Shown here: in pieces, positions 2,589 through 62,274 of the stretch | Layout: the number at the start of each line of letters is the position of its first letter | How positions within the stretch are numbered: position 1 is the stretch's first letter | IMG/VR virus record: IMGVR_UViG_3300031555_003522 | Span: 32,001 to 96,000 of that record | Origin: a virus | Taxonomy: Duplodnaviria; Caudoviricetes | Direction: 5' to 3' (one strand) | Length of the DNA stretch: 64,000 nucleotides | Translations under genes and position numbers: made by a program | The notes under the pieces: model-generated | What the model was told of the DNA's origin: nothing | Seen by the model: the letters and a program-made list of their open reading frames with translations, nothing else | The model's database searches: none

Positions 2589-2608
2589 TGTTTGAAGTCC
2601 TCCTTGTT

Positions 2609-2654
2609 AAAAAAGAAAGGCGTGGAGATACGGGACTCCACGCCTTCTTTCTTT
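2609..2654 (-). terminator. Intrinsic terminator hairpin
   Basis: aaggcgtggag / ctccacgcctt stem with flanking A/T tracts. Confidence 0.7.
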
Positions 2655-2717
2655 ATCTCAAGTAAATCAATGCTGCTTATAAATAAACAACTATTGATTT
2701 ACTTATAGATTTTTCAG

Positions 2718-9667: not shown

Positions 9668-9718
9668 ACCTTAATAGATCCTCCCTAAATATTATTACAA
9701 CTATGTTGAGGGTGTTTG

Positions 9719-9888
9719 AAACAAAGACAAGACAGCTGTATTTCTACAGCTGTCTTGTATCTACAACAAAGAAAAAGGAGGTGTACATGAAAATGAACGA
9801 AAAGAAATATATTTTTTAGGAGGTATCAAAATGAAAAACAACAATCCCGCGAACCGGACTACCCATTACGGCAATTTGAGTAACCCTT
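9719..9888 (-). ncRNA. Candidate late small RNA with two anti-RBS (ACCUCCU plus CAU) modules
   Basis: Minus-strand AACA-TATATG-TA promoter (9899-9888); 14-bp hairpin 9727-9758 followed by a U-rich tract only on the minus strand, inside a divergent intergenic region. Confidence 0.55.
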
Positions 9889-9978
9889 ACATATATGTTA
9901 CTGAAAAGCCAGGTTTTTGGGAGTATTTTTTAACTACTACAACAGATTAATAAAATTCTACTACAGGAGGATGGTATA

Positions 9979-18507: not shown

Positions 18508-18566
18508 TATTAATACTCTAGAGGGAATCCTCCCTCTAGAGTGTATTTTAGAAAAGGAGATATATT

Positions 18567-20760: not shown

Positions 20761-20846
20761 AGAAAAGGGTAAGAGGTTTTATACTTCTTACCCTTCTTTT
20801 TTTTTATTTTTATTAGCCCTTTAACTATTACAATAAGTATTTTAAG

Positions 20847-21678: not shown

Positions 21679-21686
21679 TATATTAT
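21679..21686 (+). promoter_or_regulatory. Early-type promoter motif TATATTAT (example)
   Basis: [T/C]ATATTAT recurs upstream of genes at 14972, 15929, 17871, 21679, 26095, 28480, 29283, 30668, 31481, 37724, 46888, 51526, 53053, 57567 (+) and 3569, 37693 (-); matches the early promoter type described for AR9/phiKZ. Confidence 0.7.
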
Positions 21687-21717
21687 ACTAGTGATCAATA
21701 TACAGGAGGTTAAAAAC

Positions 21718-24700
21718 ATGGGCCAACAAAAGGAATTAATGGAGGCTATGGAGTTCTTTGATCCCATACCATTTCAATATGTGGATGAATGGACACCTGG
21801 TCCGGACGATGAAGTCTTTAAAACTACTCGAGGCGCAATAATGTTAGATGTATCTGGTTTCTATGGGATGGAACCAAACCCACAGCTAGATGCATTTGTA
21901 TTGAGTGCTAAGAGGTCTTATAATAATCCTGATATGAGGACCCATACGTGCCATTACCTGAACTATTTTGAAAAATTCTATGATACTGATCACGAATTAC
22001 CAATGATTTATTGTAGATTAAAGTATCTCATTGATTGTGAACCTGCTTATAGTAGAGAGGCATTTATTTACGATCTTTATCGTTATATTATGCATGGATC
22101 TATCTATACAAAGGTTAGCTATATGAATGATGCTAACTACAGTCTATCATTAACCTATAAAAACGTGAAGAATCCTAATCTTCAATATAGTGATTGAGAA
22201 CAGTCACCTCGATATAGAAATATAGCGAGTAAAACTCCTCTAATTGCTGGAAACTCGTAAAGCTCATCTGCTACGGATATGGGAAACGAAAAAGGGAGTA
22301 CCTATCCTACAGAGACGAAAGTCAGAAACAAGTGATGAGATGATCTATGAGGAAACTCTAAGGGTTTAGCCATCAATCGACAACCAGCAGCCAAGCAAAT
22401 TAAGCTACGCAAACTAGCTTCGGATTATTTTAAACATATATTCGCCGGTATGATGGAATTGGTAAGACATAAGAGACTTAAAATCTCTCGGATTAAGTTC
22501 CGTACCGGTTCGAGTCCGGTTACCGGCACCAACCTATTTATAGATTCTGTGGTTATGAATCTATACCAAAATATAATCCACATACTTAACCAGCGTAGCC
22601 AAGTTGAAGGTTCAACGACTATCGAAAGGATAGTGCGACATGCTTGCAACGCATGTGCATGAATAACCGAGTAGAGTAGGGCTCGAGCGAGCTCGAAATG
22701 GGGAGCACCTTAGCGGATAAGTGCCGAAGGTGAAGATATAGTCTGGACTATGGGTAATGCCTATAGAAGTTCATTAAAGAACTGCGCACCAAAAGCGACG
22801 TGCGTGAACATCTCGAGGCATGGACGGATAATGATGAAAGTATCAGTCCTCATGAATATAATTATCCCTCTTATGTGTCATTTTATGTATGCGCGTAAGA
22901 TTGATAATACAACTGAGTTTATTCTCGCTGTCTACGACGTACTTATTGATCAGTATGACGTAGATATATACAATAAGCTGTACGAAACGGCTATCTCTAA
23001 TGTCTTACGTACAGCAAAAAGAAATCAAGCAATCTGGAATATGCAAGATATTCGTGGTATCAATACTAGTATCCACAGTCTACAGTCAGTACAGAATGTC
23101 TTGATAAATATAATGCCTTAACCAAACTAGGGCCATATGATAGCAATATCATATAGCAAACTCCTTTAATTGCTGGGAACTCTCACTGAGACAATCAGCA
23201 GCGAAGCCTCTATATGGGGAACGTTCAACGACTATCGAAAGGATAATGTAAGAGAAATACTTACATGAATAACCGAGTAGAGTAGGATTTATGTCCGAAA
23301 TGGGGAGCATCTTAAATATGGTAATAGTATTTGAGATGAAGATATAGTCTACTCCTTGCAGCGATGTAAGGTATACAGGAAATATAGGTACGATGGAAAT
23401 TTGTGACAAAGTTTCCTCATGTGGGAACACATGATCCAACAAGCTCTCTAATTGCTGGGAACTCTCACTGAGACAATCAGCAGCGAAGCCTCTATATGAG
23501 GAACGTTCAACGACTAGTCGAAAGACGTAGGTTCAAGCGAACCGAAATGGGAGCCACCCCAATGCTTAATAAATAAGTAATGGGTGAAGATATAGTCTGG
23601 TCTGCATGGCAACATGCAGTAGTTCATAAGAGAACAGTGTAAGATTAGCGATCTTACACGAACAACCGCTTGTCCATCTCAACTACAAGTCAATTTTACG
23701 AAATACTGGATTTCAGGTTCTGGATAATCATTTAAATGTCCACATACATGGTAACATGTATAGTAAAACTTCTTTAATTGCTGGAAGGCTAAACTTGATT
23801 AAGCAAGCATGCTAATCAGCAGCCAAGATGTTAATTTAATGATTCGGAGAGTATCTAAAATGATGACTTATGATTTTTCCAATTATTCTTATAATGGACT
23901 TCAAGTCCCTATAGAATTTTGGAAACCCATTACAGAAGAAATGGTTCCAAATGTGAAACCAATATACTTTGTAAGTAATATAGGAAATATTTATAATTCT
24001 GAGAATAATAAATATTCTATAATTACACTAAAAGCTGGTAGATATGTACAGGTTAGTCTTCGTACTAAAGATGGAGGACAAATCTGTATTCATATTCATA
24101 GATTAGTGGCCATGGCATTTCATGGAATGCCACCATCTAAAGACCATGAAGTAGATCATGTAAATTGCGATAAAACCTGTAATTTTGAGGGTAATCTTGA
24201 ATGGGTAACCCCAAAAGAAAATATAAATAGAGCTTGCATAAATAATTTGATTAGGATGGGTGAAGATAATTATAGAGCTATCTTAACCAATGATGATGTA
24301 ACTCATTTATGTGAATTACTAATGCAATCCATTCCTATCTCTAAAATATGTACTATGATGGAAGAGTATATCTATCCTAGAGTATATAGCAGCGGATTTA
24401 AAGGCTTAATAGGTCATATATTATGTGGAGATGTATGGAAAGAAATCGCAAGTCAATACAATTTTCCAGATTACGGTAGATTAAATTTTACCGATGATCA
24501 AGTTCGTATAATATGCGAATGCCTGAGCAGACAGGAACGATATATAGACATTCTTGATAAACTCGGTATGAGCAACTGTACAGAGCAGGAATTGAAGAGA
24601 CTAAAAGAGACTATATATAAGATCAAAGCAGGTAAGTCTTATGCTAATATTTCTTGTAATTACAATATTACAAGAAATAAGAGTTATATACTTACAAATA

Positions 24701-26029
24701 ATGAAGTTGATAGTATATGTAGGCAAGTAGCTCTTGGTATTGATAGAAAGGAAATAGTAAAATCCTTAGGCGAGCGTGGTAATGATAGAAAGGTAAAACA
24801 AGCAGCATATGATATATGTAATGGTATCTGCCATAAAAAAGAAGTCAATTATTATAGATCTCAATTAACAGAAGGTTCAACGACTATCGAAAAGGATCCT
24901 AATAAGGATTAACTGAGTAGAGTAGGGCTCAAGCGAGTTCGAAATGGGAAGGGTCCACTAAAGTGGATCGTGATATAGTCTCAACTGTATGGAAACATGC
25001 AGAAGTTCATAGGAGAACTGCATAGGAGTTGCGATCCTATGTGAAGGTAATGATAGAATATGAATTCAGCTTCGTATCTCTTTCCTCAAGTCGCAGAGAC
25101 GAGGATCTTAATTCTGAATTTGATAAATTTGAGTCAACTTAAGAAAAGGCTCCTTGTTATAGAAATATAGCAAGCAAACCTCTTGAATTGCTGGGAACTC
25201 TTAATGCCTATCTGCCTATATGGAGACGAAAGTCAGAAACAAGTGATGGGATGATCTATGGGGAAACCCTAATGATTTTGATAATAGATAATCAGCAGCG
25301 AAGCCTCTTATTGAGAGGAACGTTCAACGACTATCGAAAGGCATCTATAGGATGAACCGAGTAGAGTAGGATATTTATATATCCGAAGTGGGAGGTACCT
25401 GACCGAGTAATGTCGAAGGTAATGATATAGTCTACTGAATAAGAACAGCTTTTCTTAATAAAGCAGATGAGCAGCTTCTGGTTCAGCATAATTGCGCTGC
25501 TAGAGATGCTATGACTATGATTGAAATGATGTATGGTCCTTTTGATGAGGAAGAAATATTGTTCTATAAACATCGTCTTGCAGATGGTGGGAAATGTACA
25601 ATCAATGCGTTCCAGAGAGACCTCATCTTCAATCTATTCTTTAAGTATTTTGGTGATACTGCTAGCTTAAATGCTATTAACTTCGATGACTATGTCAAGT
25701 TAATTATGGCATCCAGAAGAATTCTTGAAGCTTCTGGAATGGTATTATTGCCCTATATTGTAAGCTCTAAGATTGTTCGTCTTGCTAGCCGCAAGAGTGT
25801 GAACAAGAAAGAGCTTACCAAATTAGAATCTTCTCCCCTATGGGAAAAGATCAAAGATAAGTATAAGAATGATAAAATTGAGAAACACATACTTGGTATG
25901 ATTGCTGTCATATTAAGTAGTGACTTCGAGATCATTGATCCGGAAGATCTGGAGCTTGATGGCCAAGCTATTACAGTGATTCCTGAACTGATCTGTGAAG
26001 AAATTCTCATGTATATTAGTCTTATCTAA
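21718..26029 (+). CDS. Non-virion RNAP sigma-like promoter-specificity subunit (AR9 gp226/phiKZ gp68 type), spliced: join(21718..22194,22816..23118,23380..23400,23669..23725,25053..25134,25449..26029), ~506 aa
   Basis: All five 5' splice sites end in U paired to G in a P1 helix, all 3' sites end in G, and the exons join in frame (NLQYSD|RHGRIMM, INIMP|KYRYDGN|LVHLNY, FQVLD|IEYEF, DKFE-S-FLNKAD). Motifs KRSYNN, SVLMNIIIPLMCHF, YNKLYE, EEILMYISLI match my recollection of AR9 gp226 (not verified by search). Confidence 0.8.
22195..22815 (+). mobile_element. Group I intron 1 (contains tRNA-Leu in P6 extension)
   Basis: P1 gtgat/gtcac; core motifs taattgctgg, accagcagccaag, gaaggttcaacgacta, gaagatatagtct; terminal G22815. 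Confidence 0.9.
22444..22531 (+). tRNA. trnL: tRNA-Leu (anticodon TAA), 88 nt, CCA encoded
   Basis: Acceptor GCCGGTA/TACCGGC-A-CCA; anticodon arm agaga-ctTAAaa-tctct; long variable arm; T-arm accgg-ttcgagt-ccggt. Confidence 0.93.
23119..23379 (+). mobile_element. Group I intron 2 (261 nt, no ORF)
   Basis: P1 gcct/gggc; taattgctggg, aatcagcagcgaag, gttcaacgacta, gaagatatagtct; terminal G23379. Confidence 0.88.
23401..23668 (+). mobile_element. Group I intron 3 (268 nt, no ORF)
   Basis: P1 ggaaat/gtttcc; P10 gacaa:ttgtc with 3' exon; same core motifs; terminal G23668. Confidence 0.9.
23726..25052 (+). mobile_element. Group I intron 4 carrying HNH homing endonuclease in P6
   Basis: P1 tggat/gtcca; aatcagcagccaag ... 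ORF ... gaaggttcaacgacta; gatatagtct; terminal G25052. Confidence 0.9.
23860..24912 (+). CDS. Intron-encoded NUMOD4/HNH homing endonuclease with three C-terminal helical repeats
   Basis: EFWKPI..YFVSNIGNI, HIHRLVAMAF..VDHVNCDKTCNFEGNLEWVTPKEN; repeats ILTNDDV/FTDDQV/ILTNNEV..IC; GGAG SD before ATG 23860; 3' end overlaps the intron core. Confidence 0.9.
   Translation: MMTYDFSNYSYNGLQVPIEFWKPITEEMVPNVKPIYFVSNIGNIYNSENNKYSIITLKAGRYVQVSLRTKDGGQICIHIHRLVAMAFHGMPPSKDHEVDHVNCDKTCNFEGNLEWVTPKENINRACINNLIRMGEDNYRAILTNDDVTHLCELLMQSIPISKICTMMEEYIYPRVYSSGFKGLIGHILCGDVWKEIASQYNFPDYGRLNFTDDQVRIICECLSRQERYIDILDKLGMSNCTEQELKRLKETIYKIKAGKSYANISCNYNITRNKSYILTNNEVDSICRQVALGIDRKEIVKSLGERGNDRKVKQAAYDICNGICHKKEVNYYRSQLTEGSTTIEKDPNKD
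25135..25448 (+). mobile_element. Group I intron 5 (314 nt, phase 1)
   Basis: P1 gagt/gctc; perfect 10-bp P10 ttaagaaaag:cttttcttaa with 3' exon; core motifs; terminal G25448 restores the frame of ORF 25511. Confidence 0.92.
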
Positions 26030-26506: not shown

Positions 26507-26628
26507 ATAAGGTGGAATCAATTTCCACCTTATTTTTTTTTTTGACTGTCTAAAATAGTGGTTTTAGACCACTTTCGTCACAAAAAAGAAAAACGAAATA
26601 ATAAAGAAACCCGAAAGGAGAAAAATAA

Positions 26629-27597: not shown

Positions 27598-27732
27598 TTT
27601 ATATAAGGAGTGAGATAATTCTCACTCCTTATTTTATTTTCATTTGATAGTATAAAATGCCTATTTTAGACCACTTTTACCACAAAAAAAAAACGAAATA
27701 ATAATACTATACTCGAAAGTGAGGAAATTATA

Positions 27733-49361: not shown

Positions 49362-49502
49362 TTATATTTCTCCTTTCGAGTTTCTTTATTATTTCGTTTT
49401 TTTTTTTGCGATAAAAGTGATCTAAAAGTGACATTTTTGACTATCAAATAGAATGAGTAGTATTTCAACTTATTAATAATTGACTGATTGGAGGTATCGG
49501 TA

Positions 49503-59648: not shown

Positions 59649-60214
59649 GGTGTATAATAATGGCTACAACAATATTAATCAATACCTTAAATGAAATAAA
59701 TGAAATTAAACTTCCGTTTAAGTTTTTAATTAAATTAAAGAAAAAGTATTTAATAAATAAAGCTGTAAGAGAGATAAATAGAACCTACTTCAATAGAAAT
59801 TATTTCACTTCTTCTCATATAGCAAGTTTTTGCCGTCTTTTTCATGCAGCTAAACTTATGGAAATTTTAAAAGATGATGATCTTGTTCATAATGATAGCA
59901 TAATTGTCGAAAGTGCAAAAATAGATATTGCTTATTTCGACAATTTTTCTATTATGAAGATTAAATCGAATACACAAGAAATGATATTTACAGCTGTAGA
60001 CAATATCAAAGTTGAGCATATAGATAATAGAGATTCTGAACACAGTTACAGATCGGTATATACATTCGATGATGTTACTACTGAAAACAGAGATTCAAAA
60101 GAATGGAATACATATAAAGAAATGATTAGGACTTGTTCGTATGAGTCGCTATATATAGCATTTAACCTCATCGTTCAGATAGTGTTTAATGCTTTATATG
60201 AAAAGGAGAATTGA
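59645..60214 (+). CDS. Hypothetical protein
   Basis: Likely start 59660 after GAGGTG. Confidence 0.65.
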   Translation: MRCIIMATTILINTLNEINEIKLPFKFLIKLKKKYLINKAVREINRTYFNRNYFTSSHIASFCRLFHAAKLMEILKDDDLVHNDSIIVESAKIDIAYFDNFSIMKIKSNTQEMIFTAVDNIKVEHIDNRDSEHSYRSVYTFDDVTTENRDSKEWNTYKEMIRTCSYESLYIAFNLIVQIVFNALYEKEN

Positions 60215-60728
60215 TATGGGAAACATGAAAACTCCAAATATTTTTATGAATATTATAAGTGAGAAAAATCCAAAAGGATTATTTTCTAAATTAGTTCATA
60301 AAATAAAATTGCGTAAATTTAGAAATAATATTCTTAAAGGAAGTCCTAGTTTTGGTTTATTATGGAAGATGGCAGATTTCATCAAAATATCTGAGTTTAT
60401 ATTCTTTTATAATAATACGCATTCTCTAGATTCTGAGTTTGCCATATATTCATCTAAAGAATATATGGCTGGAACAAATGGGTTTAAACTTAGAGATGAT
60501 GCAACAGGATGTATAATTACAATTAAACTCATTTCAGATACTCAAAAAGTAATAGTCGATATAGAGCGTCAACGCGGAAATAGGTTAAAGAATAGTATGG
60601 TATTTGTAGATAATGCTTGGCAAGATTCTGATTATACAGCTTATGATGAAATGCTTTTAGAACAAGTAATCAAGATTATCAACTCAAAGATTATGGCGCT
60701 ATTTGATTACTGCTATTCTCTGAGGTAA
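60189..60728 (+). CDS. Hypothetical protein
   Basis: Likely start 60216 after AAGGAG. Confidence 0.65.
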   Translation: MLYMKRRIDMGNMKTPNIFMNIISEKNPKGLFSKLVHKIKLRKFRNNILKGSPSFGLLWKMADFIKISEFIFFYNNTHSLDSEFAIYSSKEYMAGTNGFKLRDDATGCIITIKLISDTQKVIVDIERQRGNRLKNSMVFVDNAWQDSDYTAYDEMLLEQVIKIINSKIMALFDYCYSLR

Positions 60729-60756
60729 TTATATATAACTTTCTAAACATACTAGT

Positions 60757-60856
60757 ATAACCACCTCCGATGGTTATGGCTTTTGCGGACATTCCATATT
60801 TTTGACTTCCTGCTGATGTGTAGGGGACCTTCTTCGGAGGGTCCCCTATACTTTTT
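60757..60856 (+). ncRNA. Candidate ~100-nt late small RNA with CCUCC exposed in a 5' hairpin loop
   Basis: AACA-TACTAG-TA (60746-60757); hairpin ataacca-cctccga-tggttat starts at predicted +1; strong taggggacct...ttcg...gggtccccta terminator. Confidence 0.55.
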
Positions 60857-60881
60857 GCATAAAGTAAAAAGGAGAATATTT

Positions 60882-62018
60882 ATGAGGTACTATACACCAA
60901 TAAATAATAATAGATATCTGATAGAAGTTCATATTGCAGATATACATTTTGGATCTATAGATCCATCTACTCAATTCTCTATTCTGTATGAGCAATTCAT
61001 ACAGAAAATAAATCTTATAAATTTTGATATCCTATCTATAGATGGTGATATTTTTGATAAAAAATTTATGGCAAATCATGATGCTATAAGATATGCTATG
61101 GAGTTCGTAAGACTCTGTGCAGAAATGTGTATAATCAAACAAGCAACCATGATTATTATATCTGGAACTGAAAGCCATGATTCTGGTCAGCTTAAATTAT
61201 TCTACGGATACCTTGAAGATCCTAGACTAGATCTAAGAATTGTAGAGCATGCTAACTTTGAGATGATTAAAGGTTTAAAAGTACTATGTATCCCAGAAGA
61301 ATATGGTAAGGGAGAAGAGTATTATAGGCCGTTATTAGATGATATCTACGATACATGCTTTATGCATGGAACTGTTGTTGGCTCGGTATACGGGGCAAAT
61401 AAAGAGGATCTTGGGTCAAAGAAATATCCTGTATTTTCTATTGATAGTTTTGCAGGATGTAGAGGGCCGATTATTGCAGGTCATGTGCATAAGGCTATGT
61501 GTCTAAATGGTTATATATACTATTGCTCTAATCCGATTAGATACAGATTCGGCGAAGAAGAAGATAAAGGATTTGTAATAGTATTACATGATAGAATATC
61601 GAATGCTCATTCTATGGATTTTATTCCTATAGAATCTTTTAGATATGATACTATAGATATTAGCACTTTAAATTATGCTGACCCTAATGAGGTAATTAAA
61701 TATCTGGATGGGTTAATGAATAATGGAATAGATAATATAAGAATAGACTTCAGTAGATTGGATGAACCTTCTATGCAAAAGGTTATTGAGCAATATTATA
61801 TAAATAACCCGCATGTTGCAATAAAGAAGTATGTATCTAAAGAAGTTGCACAAGTAAATACTACAGATAGTATAATGGAAAAATATTCTGGTTTTGAATT
61901 TCTTTTAGATCCAAATTTGGATAGCTATACGAAGTTTGTAAATTTCATCAACCAGAATATGGGTAGTCAATATATTACTGTAGAGAAATTAAAGGCCGTA
62001 TTAGCCGGAGGTATTTAA
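60882..62018 (+). CDS. sbcD: SbcD/Mre11-like nuclease
   Basis: HIADIHFG, IDGDIFD, SGTESHD, FMHG, AGHVH; AAGGAG SD before ATG 60882. Confidence 0.88.
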   Translation: MRYYTPINNNRYLIEVHIADIHFGSIDPSTQFSILYEQFIQKINLINFDILSIDGDIFDKKFMANHDAIRYAMEFVRLCAEMCIIKQATMIIISGTESHDSGQLKLFYGYLEDPRLDLRIVEHANFEMIKGLKVLCIPEEYGKGEEYYRPLLDDIYDTCFMHGTVVGSVYGANKEDLGSKKYPVFSIDSFAGCRGPIIAGHVHKAMCLNGYIYYCSNPIRYRFGEEEDKGFVIVLHDRISNAHSMDFIPIESFRYDTIDISTLNYADPNEVIKYLDGLMNNGIDNIRIDFSRLDEPSMQKVIEQYYINNPHVAIKKYVSKEVAQVNTTDSIMEKYSGFEFLLDPNLDSYTKFVNFINQNMGSQYITVEKLKAVLAGGI

Positions 62019-62019
62019 T

Positions 62020-62274
62020 ATGTCCGATATTCAGAAAGTGCTTCCTATACTATATTGCCAACCTATAGAATTCCTGGATAAAATAGATGAGCTATATATT
62101 GGTCAGGTATTGGTAGTGACTAGACACTCAAAGAAGAATAATGATATTATAAATGAAGTATGGATAAGAGATGGTAATACATCTTATCGAAAGATAAATT
62201 TACAAGATACAATAATAAAGGCAACATTTAATACGAATGGGGATGAAATTAGTGTCATTGCTCGGAAAGAATAA
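62020..62274 (+). CDS. Hypothetical protein
   Basis: GGAGGT SD. Confidence 0.6.
   Translation: MSDIQKVLPILYCQPIEFLDKIDELYIGQVLVVTRHSKKNNDIINEVWIRDGNTSYRKINLQDTIIKATFNTNGDEISVIARKE

Follow-up and report, generated by a model that had tools for sequence, protein, structure and literature searches.

In phage phiKZ, abundant RNAs of 71 nt and 141 nt are generated by premature termination within the 5'UTRs upstream of PHIKZ221 and PHIKZ302, and the 5'UTR terminators of this phage stop more than 90% of the transcripts (PMC10914365). For phage AR9 two promoter classes, early and late, have been mapped, the late one with the consensus AACA-N6-TA/G; RNA-seq revealed strong termination at the predicted terminators, and g226 was assigned to the early genes (PMC5312081). 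The entries 7S01, 7UM0 and 7UM1 represent the AR9 non-virion polymerase holoenzyme and its promoter complexes, and they contain a chain of 464 residues that the core entry 7S00 lacks; this chain is gp226, a sigma-like subunit conferring promoter specificity (PMC9209446). An RNA regulator of g226 or of the polymerases of these jumbo phages was not found in the literature searched.

Phage small RNAs blocking the ribosome-binding region of a phage mRNA are represented by the c4 antisense RNA of P1 and P7, which acts on the downstream gene of its own operon via two short segments, and by the sar RNA of P22, which is a cis-antisense RNA. The RsaE/RoxS-type sRNAs of Firmicutes combine a 5' hairpin, unpaired C/U-rich segments and a Rho-independent terminator, and they act by occlusion of the Shine-Dalgarno sequence (SD). 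In the PR'-6S RNA-tR' region of phage lambda the controlled genes are preceded by a promoter and a short terminated RNA, the control being exerted by the Q antiterminator; we know of no antisense role of the 6S RNA.

Genome context and promoter classes

The analysed stretch of 64,000 nt, here referred to as the window, comprises bases 32001-96000 of a single-contig virus record of 207,861 bp with a G+C content of 34%. Its source is an uncultured AR9-like giant phage. According to tblastn searches its SbcD-like protein matches Bacillus phages AR9 and PBS1, jumbo phages of Staphylococcus and Listeria, and phiKZ-like phages, and both AR9-type promoter classes are used in the genome. The early class has the form TATATTAT-N6-G, which is the AR9 early consensus (PMC5312081). 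The late class reads AAC(A/T)-N6-TA, with transcription starting at the final A, and is usually located 15-45 nt 5' of a start codon throughout the genome. AAC[AT]-N6-TA was detected 278 times genome-wide with an intergenic share of 31% compared with a background of 10%, while spacing controls with N5 and N7 gave intergenic shares of 9% and 8%, respectively. The SDs in this genome are predominantly of the GGAGG type.

Late leaders in this phage mostly measure 15-45 nt and are without structure. The leader of sbcD is an outlier among them since it has a length of 125 nt and carries a hairpin at +1.

Approximately 17 other terminators lie at most 60 nt from a start codon without an intervening promoter, and a handful of late motifs is followed immediately 3' by a hairpin with a U tract and then by an SD. 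Based on these recurrent arrangements read-through terminators appear to be a normal device in this phage, and they seem to set expression levels routinely.

Several further arrangements were observed in the genome. Strong terminator hairpins directly before an SD, with no recognisable promoter in between, are present at 2589-2717 (minus strand) and 18508-18566. A late motif with a strong hairpin and U tract within 1-10 nt was found at position 20765 of the window, and the same pattern occurs beyond it at genome positions 103456, 102029, 123135 and 125233; these sites could be additional units for short RNAs or provide late mRNAs with a 5' stem-loop. A motif of approximately 50 nt, consisting of TTTTAGACCACTTT and then a CACAAAAAAG-type A-rich run with CGAAATAATAA at its end, is present in three copies between a terminator and an SD (26540-26600, 27650-27710, and 49380-49450 (minus strand)). 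The region 9668-9978 contains two strong SDs with ORFs of 10 and 39 codons on the plus strand, and a minus-strand late motif at 9899 which, together with the terminator at 9758, would yield an RNA of approximately 160 nt comprising two CAU-N7-CCUCC segments.

A predicted late-promoter-to-terminator unit upstream of sbcD

The spacer of 153 nt between sbcD and the gene preceding it holds the whole unit, which consists of the following features together with its flanking genes:

60189-60728, plus strand: upstream gene without an assigned family
60746-60757, plus strand: AR9-type late (non-virion RNA polymerase) promoter AACA-N6-TA with the predicted +1 at A 60757, according to motif enrichment, placement, relatives and the AR9 consensus (PMC5312081)
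60757-60777, plus strand: 5'-terminal hairpin with a 7-bp stem (60757-60763/60771-60777) and the 7-nt loop CCUCCGA (60764-60770), according to folds and relatives
60786-60815, plus strand: candidate anti-ribosome-binding-site block, predicted to be single-stranded, of the form CAU-N8-CUUCCU, according to RNAduplex and homologous blocks
60818-60856, plus strand: intrinsic terminator with a 15-bp stem (60818-60851), a cUUCGg loop and T5 (60852-60856), recognised as hairpin and U tract
60870-60884, plus strand: SD (AGGAG) and start codon ATG of sbcD; the interval from the terminator to the SD contains no promoter motif
60882-62018, plus strand: gene of an SbcD-like nuclease, assigned to phrog_100 and by tblastn to SbcD of AR9/PBS1/phiKZ-like phages

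Analysis of the sequence thus supports a unit extending from a late promoter to a terminator at 60746-60856, which lacks a credible ORF and should give an RNA of roughly 100 nt. The fold z-score was -5.2 for the spacer and -4.6 for the predicted RNA of 101 nt. In the ensemble fold the CCUCCGA loop is unpaired (probability 0.6-0.99), as is the linker of approximately 40 nt, which contains CAUUCCAU (60790-97) and GACUUCCU (60804-11). The terminator, with eight G-C pairs among its 15 bp and a folding energy of -27.2 kcal/mol, also ends the upstream operon. No promoter motif was detected between the terminator and the SD of sbcD, and the same applies to the relatives, so that sbcD would be reached only by read-through. 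On a wider matrix extending beyond the core motif, the predicted promoter at 60746 is outscored by 42 gene-proximal late promoters, the main causes being the high G+C content at the start of its transcript and a base other than A at position +2. The initial annotation of this locus had described a late promoter motif, a hairpin exactly at the predicted start, a pyrimidine-rich linker and a very strong UUCG-capped terminator placed between two co-directional genes, and all of these elements were recovered at the coordinates listed above.

Two coding interpretations of the leader were considered and rejected. The sole ORF that might encode a leader peptide comprises 11 codons, has no SD and differs in the closest relative (L008), and an in-frame N-terminal extension of sbcD from TTG 60783 is closed in L008. 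A search against Rfam 15 gave nothing at the gathering threshold, the best results at E<=10 being 11-18 bits compared with thresholds of 41-80. Hairpin 15-mers gave only chance matches inside coding DNA when compared with IMG/VR, and no nucleotide match was found in the phage collection.

Furthermore, the sequence UCGGAGG, located in the loop and 3' arm of the terminator (60834-60840), is an exact complement of the hairpin loop CCUCCGA (60764-60770), and this complementarity is kept in L008. According to the sequence it could represent a tertiary contact, an alternative fold or a chance effect of the purine-rich terminator arms.

Conservation of the leader in related phages

A comparison of 55 related sbcD loci revealed the same order at an SbcD identity of at least 54%: the upstream gene, a late motif, a structured leader, a terminator-like hairpin and the SD of sbcD. 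The leaders of the relatives measure 55-170 nt and carry a hairpin near +1 and, before the SD, a strong hairpin followed by a U-rich tail. About eight related lineages keep this layout of promoter, structured leader, terminator and sbcD; a counterpart of the leader was not detected in the more distant phages examined.

In L008, whose SbcD shares an identity of 81%, promoter and hairpin are identical at 31 of 33 positions, compared with approximately 65-70% for the flanking coding DNA; the apex of the terminator is likewise identical and its lower stem co-varies. A deletion of 32 nt removes the linker from L008, promoter, hairpin and terminator being kept. At 61-63% identity, L004/L017 possess a 12-bp A+U stem at +1 which is unrelated to the stem of the phage studied here and presents the loop UCCUCCAU. 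A CCUCC loop is restricted to three of the approximately eight lineages, namely the phage studied here, L008 and L004/L017, and is absent from L001/L009, L002/3, L011, L012-16 and L005, which have other first hairpins. The hairpin with the CCUCC loop may be described as a conserved accessory, which may serve as a second SD-binding site or as a 5' stabiliser.

According to the leader alignment the linker block is homologous in the phage studied here, L011, L004, L001/L009 and L002, and it is absent from L012-L016 and L005, which do have the leader. The 5' part of the leader studied here is poorly conserved across the lineages. In the leaders of L012, L015 and L016, which belong to the lineages with 54-58% identity, a shared, conserved sequence GGAUGCGAAYCG is located just after the predicted start, approximately 110-120 nt upstream of sbcD, and stands in place of the CCUCC hairpin.

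Complementarity of the linker to the start site of a gp226-like gene

The candidate target of the linker is a gene in the same window with the following features:

21679-21693, plus strand: early promoter TATATTAT-N6-G of the candidate target gene (motif 21679-21686, +1 at G 21693), according to the AR9 early consensus (PMC5312081)
21703-21722, plus strand: candidate target site comprising SD, spacer, AUG and the first bases of codon 2, according to RNAduplex and alignment
21718-22194, plus strand: exon 1 of the gene for a gp226 homolog (in AR9, gp226 is the sigma-like subunit which gives the non-virion RNA polymerase its promoter specificity), assigned by hhalign to the family profile A3 (100%, E 3e-61)

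The target family has a length of approximately 510 residues, and searches against Pfam and PHROG gave no matches to it. The profile A3, which was built from 27 family members, matches 7S01_A (464 aa; also in 7UM0 and 7UM1) in the PDB with an E value of 6.9e-23 over nearly the full length. As judged by its own early promoter the gp226-like gene is also an early gene. The gene (21718-25510) is interrupted after residue 159 with group I introns following exon 1; Rfam assigned four group I introns within 22185-25443 and a tRNA-like match inside one of them (22444-22528).

Nucleotides 60793-60812 of the linker are complementary to 21722-21703 at 19 of 20 positions, which corresponds to positions +11 to +30 of the mRNA. 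An RNAduplex comparison of the 30-nt segment preceding the terminator (60786-60815) with the 558 SD-preceded starts of ORFs of at least 50 codons placed the start site at 21718 first with -24.5 kcal/mol; this target was arrived at post hoc, several other ideas having been tried before it. Two complete related genomes were added and the orthologs of the gene at 21718 located; their start sites differ in sequence. The cognate start sites ranked third of 476 (L004 phage) and sixth of 667 (L002/3 phage), each against its own block. The comparison covers the three genomes with both loci, two of them independent lineages besides the phage studied here. The target of the L004 phage uses GUG, which is matched by CAC in its leader. 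The six non-cognate combinations of leader and target gave ranks of 22-357. When the untrimmed 5' regions served as query the ranks were 2, 7 and 14, and dinucleotide-shuffled blocks attained the energy of the native block in 0, 1 and 11 of 1000 trials in the three genomes. With a cruder alignment score the orthologs of the 21718 gene only rank 25-44 of 476 and 18-21 of 667, and the duplexes of the two relatives (G1 and G2) are interrupted (8 + approximately 8 bp and 9 + 6 bp). Further viral contigs lack either the leader or the target gene.

Based on these comparisons it is the linker (60786-60815), and not the loop, that appears as the co-varying part, and its sequence reads as an antisense image of a complete ribosome-binding site. 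An anti-ribosome-binding-site function is the best-supported reading of the sequence data. In the L004 phage the loop, as read by eye, could pair with 8 nt surrounding the SD in that phage's own gp226-like start.

Three other targets were considered and discarded. The gene at genome position 203689 was the best linker target by alignment in the phage studied here and took ranks 19, 371 and 634 when the orthologs were included, which do not fit the leaders of their own phages. For the loop, a complement of 10 nt at genome position 194569 lies inside a GGGGH-coding stretch, and a match of 7 nt at the SD of the gene at 62020 is made of C-terminal codons of SbcD and is missing in L008. The SD of this gene following sbcD (CGGAGGT, 62003-62022) is built from the conserved C-terminal Ala-Gly-Gly-Ile codons of SbcD.

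Proposed role of the sbcD leader

The gp226-like gene would be transcribed early by the virion polymerase, and its product would enable the non-virion polymerase to use the late promoters including that at 60746. As suggested by the motif, the non-virion RNA polymerase would then initiate at 60757. Most transcripts would stop at 60818-60856, yielding the RNA of approximately 100 nt, and a minority would read through into the sbcD mRNA. The unpaired block 60786-60815 is predicted to pair with the SD, spacer and AUG of the early gp226-like mRNA (21703-21722), which would block binding of the 30S subunit and consequently further synthesis of the factor that reads the late promoters. Since the candidate target is a homolog of the subunit reading the late promoters, a negative feedback is suggested, in which late transcription would act back onto its own specificity subunit. 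The block would also be present at the 3' end of those upstream-operon transcripts that end at this terminator, and these transcripts could therefore act likewise.

We tentatively favour this explanation, i.e. a late unit in the sbcD leader whose short RNA masks the gp226-like start and whose read-through supplies sbcD, although we hold it to be slightly more doubtful than probable. The wider proposal, that in AR9-like gut jumbo phages the sigma-like subunit drives a leader RNA of sbcD which masks the subunit's own mRNA, as one of a set of late RNAs silencing early genes by mirroring their start sites, is possible but on the doubtful side. The question bears on the switch from early to late transcription and on the limitation of the late enzyme in jumbo phages that themselves encode two polymerases. 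If the explanation is true, masking the start of the sigma-like subunit would provide a simple feedback mechanism, and the short and defined pairing permits an examination by compensatory mutations. If the cis reading discussed below holds alone, the element is an ordinary attenuating leader.

Alternative explanations

The element may act in cis only, as late promoter and 5'UTR of sbcD with a terminator that ends the upstream operon and throttles sbcD, the short RNA being a by-product without a target; the 5' hairpin would, in the same joint reading, stabilise the read-through mRNA. The element is tied to the SD of sbcD in every lineage with no promoter 3' of the terminator, and a cis role suffices to explain its position because it is always joined to sbcD and read-through terminators are common in this phage, as illustrated by the approximately 17 other promoterless terminator-start codon intervals of at most 60 nt and by the several other late motifs followed by hairpin, U tract and SD. 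The poor conservation of the 5' part across the lineages, the lack of the linker in L008 and the precedent of premature termination in 5'UTRs of phiKZ (PMC10914365) point in the same direction. However, a role restricted to cis leaves unexplained the cognate complementarity with its ranks of 1, 3 and 6, the diagonal structure of the rank matrix and the conservation of an unpaired CU-rich block, and it does not account for a long, structured leader in a genome where late leaders are mostly short and unstructured. Neither does it explain why the SD of sbcD is not masked: in ensemble folds its accessibility in the native leader was equal to or higher than that in leaders with a shuffled 5' part in 9 of 11 lineages, and masking of the SD in cis by the C/U-rich block was rejected as there was no extra masking in these 9 of 11 lineages. 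We regard a role restricted to cis as unlikely. Cis attenuation of sbcD is nevertheless probably true in addition to the proposed antisense role, since there is no promoter between the terminator and sbcD; by analogy with AR9, whose polymerase terminates at predicted terminators, it could hardly be avoided if the polymerase of this phage does so here.

The initial annotation proposed an sRNA of approximately 100 nt with a loop-exposed seed for GGAGG sequences, belonging to a dispersed family of anti-ribosome-binding-site RNAs. The unit itself and the exposure of pyrimidine-rich segments in the predicted RNA stood up to the analysis; the assignment of the seed to the loop did not, as the loop does not track a target and no specific target was identified for it. 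The dispersed family was not borne out, since there is no paralog of the element in this genome and the other CCTCC hairpins are mostly the antisense of real SDs. In its general form the idea implies that the loop CCUCC, which in the form CACCUCC reproduces the 3' end of the 16S RNA, titrates GGAGG sequences broadly. This would agree with the exposure of the loop in the folds, the full conservation of the hairpin in L008, the UCCUCCAU loop presented at +1 on an unrelated stem in L004/L017 and the dominance of GGAGG-type SDs in the genome. Yet the CCUCC loop is missing from L001/L009, L002/3, L011, L012-16 and L005, both of its complements are explained by coding sequence, a paralogous family is lacking and a generic seed of 5-7 nt would strike phage and host messages alike. 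A general anti-Shine-Dalgarno RNA is consequently considered improbable.

It is very improbable that the arrangement is incidental, with an inactive motif and a hairpin that arose by chance before an operon terminator. The core motif is indeed low in information and the site is the lowest on the extended matrix, but the motif is found at the same spot in approximately eight lineages, promoter and hairpin form an island with 31 of 33 identical positions in L008, the fold z-scores are strongly negative and the target appears to co-vary with the block.

The least probable reading is a protein-recognition or antitermination site of the nut/put/Q type, in which a phage factor bound to the +1 hairpin would time the read-through into sbcD, for although the layout recalls lambda PR'-6S RNA-tR', stem and loop are identical in L008 and the loop complement at 60834-60840 in the terminator apex and 3' arm is kept there, the genome contains the element only once, conservation of the hairpin sequence stops at L008 and a terminator stem of 15 bp would beat a loop contact of 7 bp.

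Comparison with known systems

The RNA masking a gp226-like start, which remains our preferred reading, resembles the 5'UTR RNAs of phiKZ. In both cases a jumbo phage encoding multisubunit polymerases possesses a terminator approximately 70-140 nt after the promoter within a 5'UTR, and the phiKZ-type layout, with the terminator between promoter and start codon and no second promoter, is found here as well as in the relatives. The phiKZ pattern of a dominant short RNA and a minor read-through mRNA is predicted here from sequence alone. In contrast, the phiKZ RNAs were seen experimentally and have no known target, whereas the sbcD-leader RNA is a prediction with a candidate target that appears to co-vary, and there is no sequence relationship between them. 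If the proposed role is true, short RNAs terminated in 5'UTRs as in phiKZ can have targets in trans.

With AR9 the phage shares the same two promoter classes, and gp226 belongs to the same sigma-like family as the candidate target (PMC5312081, PMC9209446). AR9 and PBS1 differ in having no such leader before SbcD; all that is present there is a late-type motif with a short leader.

The arrangement promoter, short terminated RNA and genes is common to lambda PR'-6S RNA-tR' and the sbcD locus. The predicted RNA has the same architecture as the RsaE/RoxS-type sRNAs; these use short UCCC/CCCC seeds and have many targets, whereas the linker would provide a mirror of 20 nt to the SD, spacer and AUG of one gene, and there is no homology.

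As in the case of c4 and sar, a phage-encoded small RNA is predicted to act against a ribosome-binding region of the phage itself; it differs from them in having a candidate target which is located 39 kb away and encodes a polymerase specificity subunit, and in having no Rfam match. The sbcD-leader RNA is thus described as a predicted antisense RNA which would cover a ribosome-binding site of the phage and would arise through premature termination in a 5'UTR.
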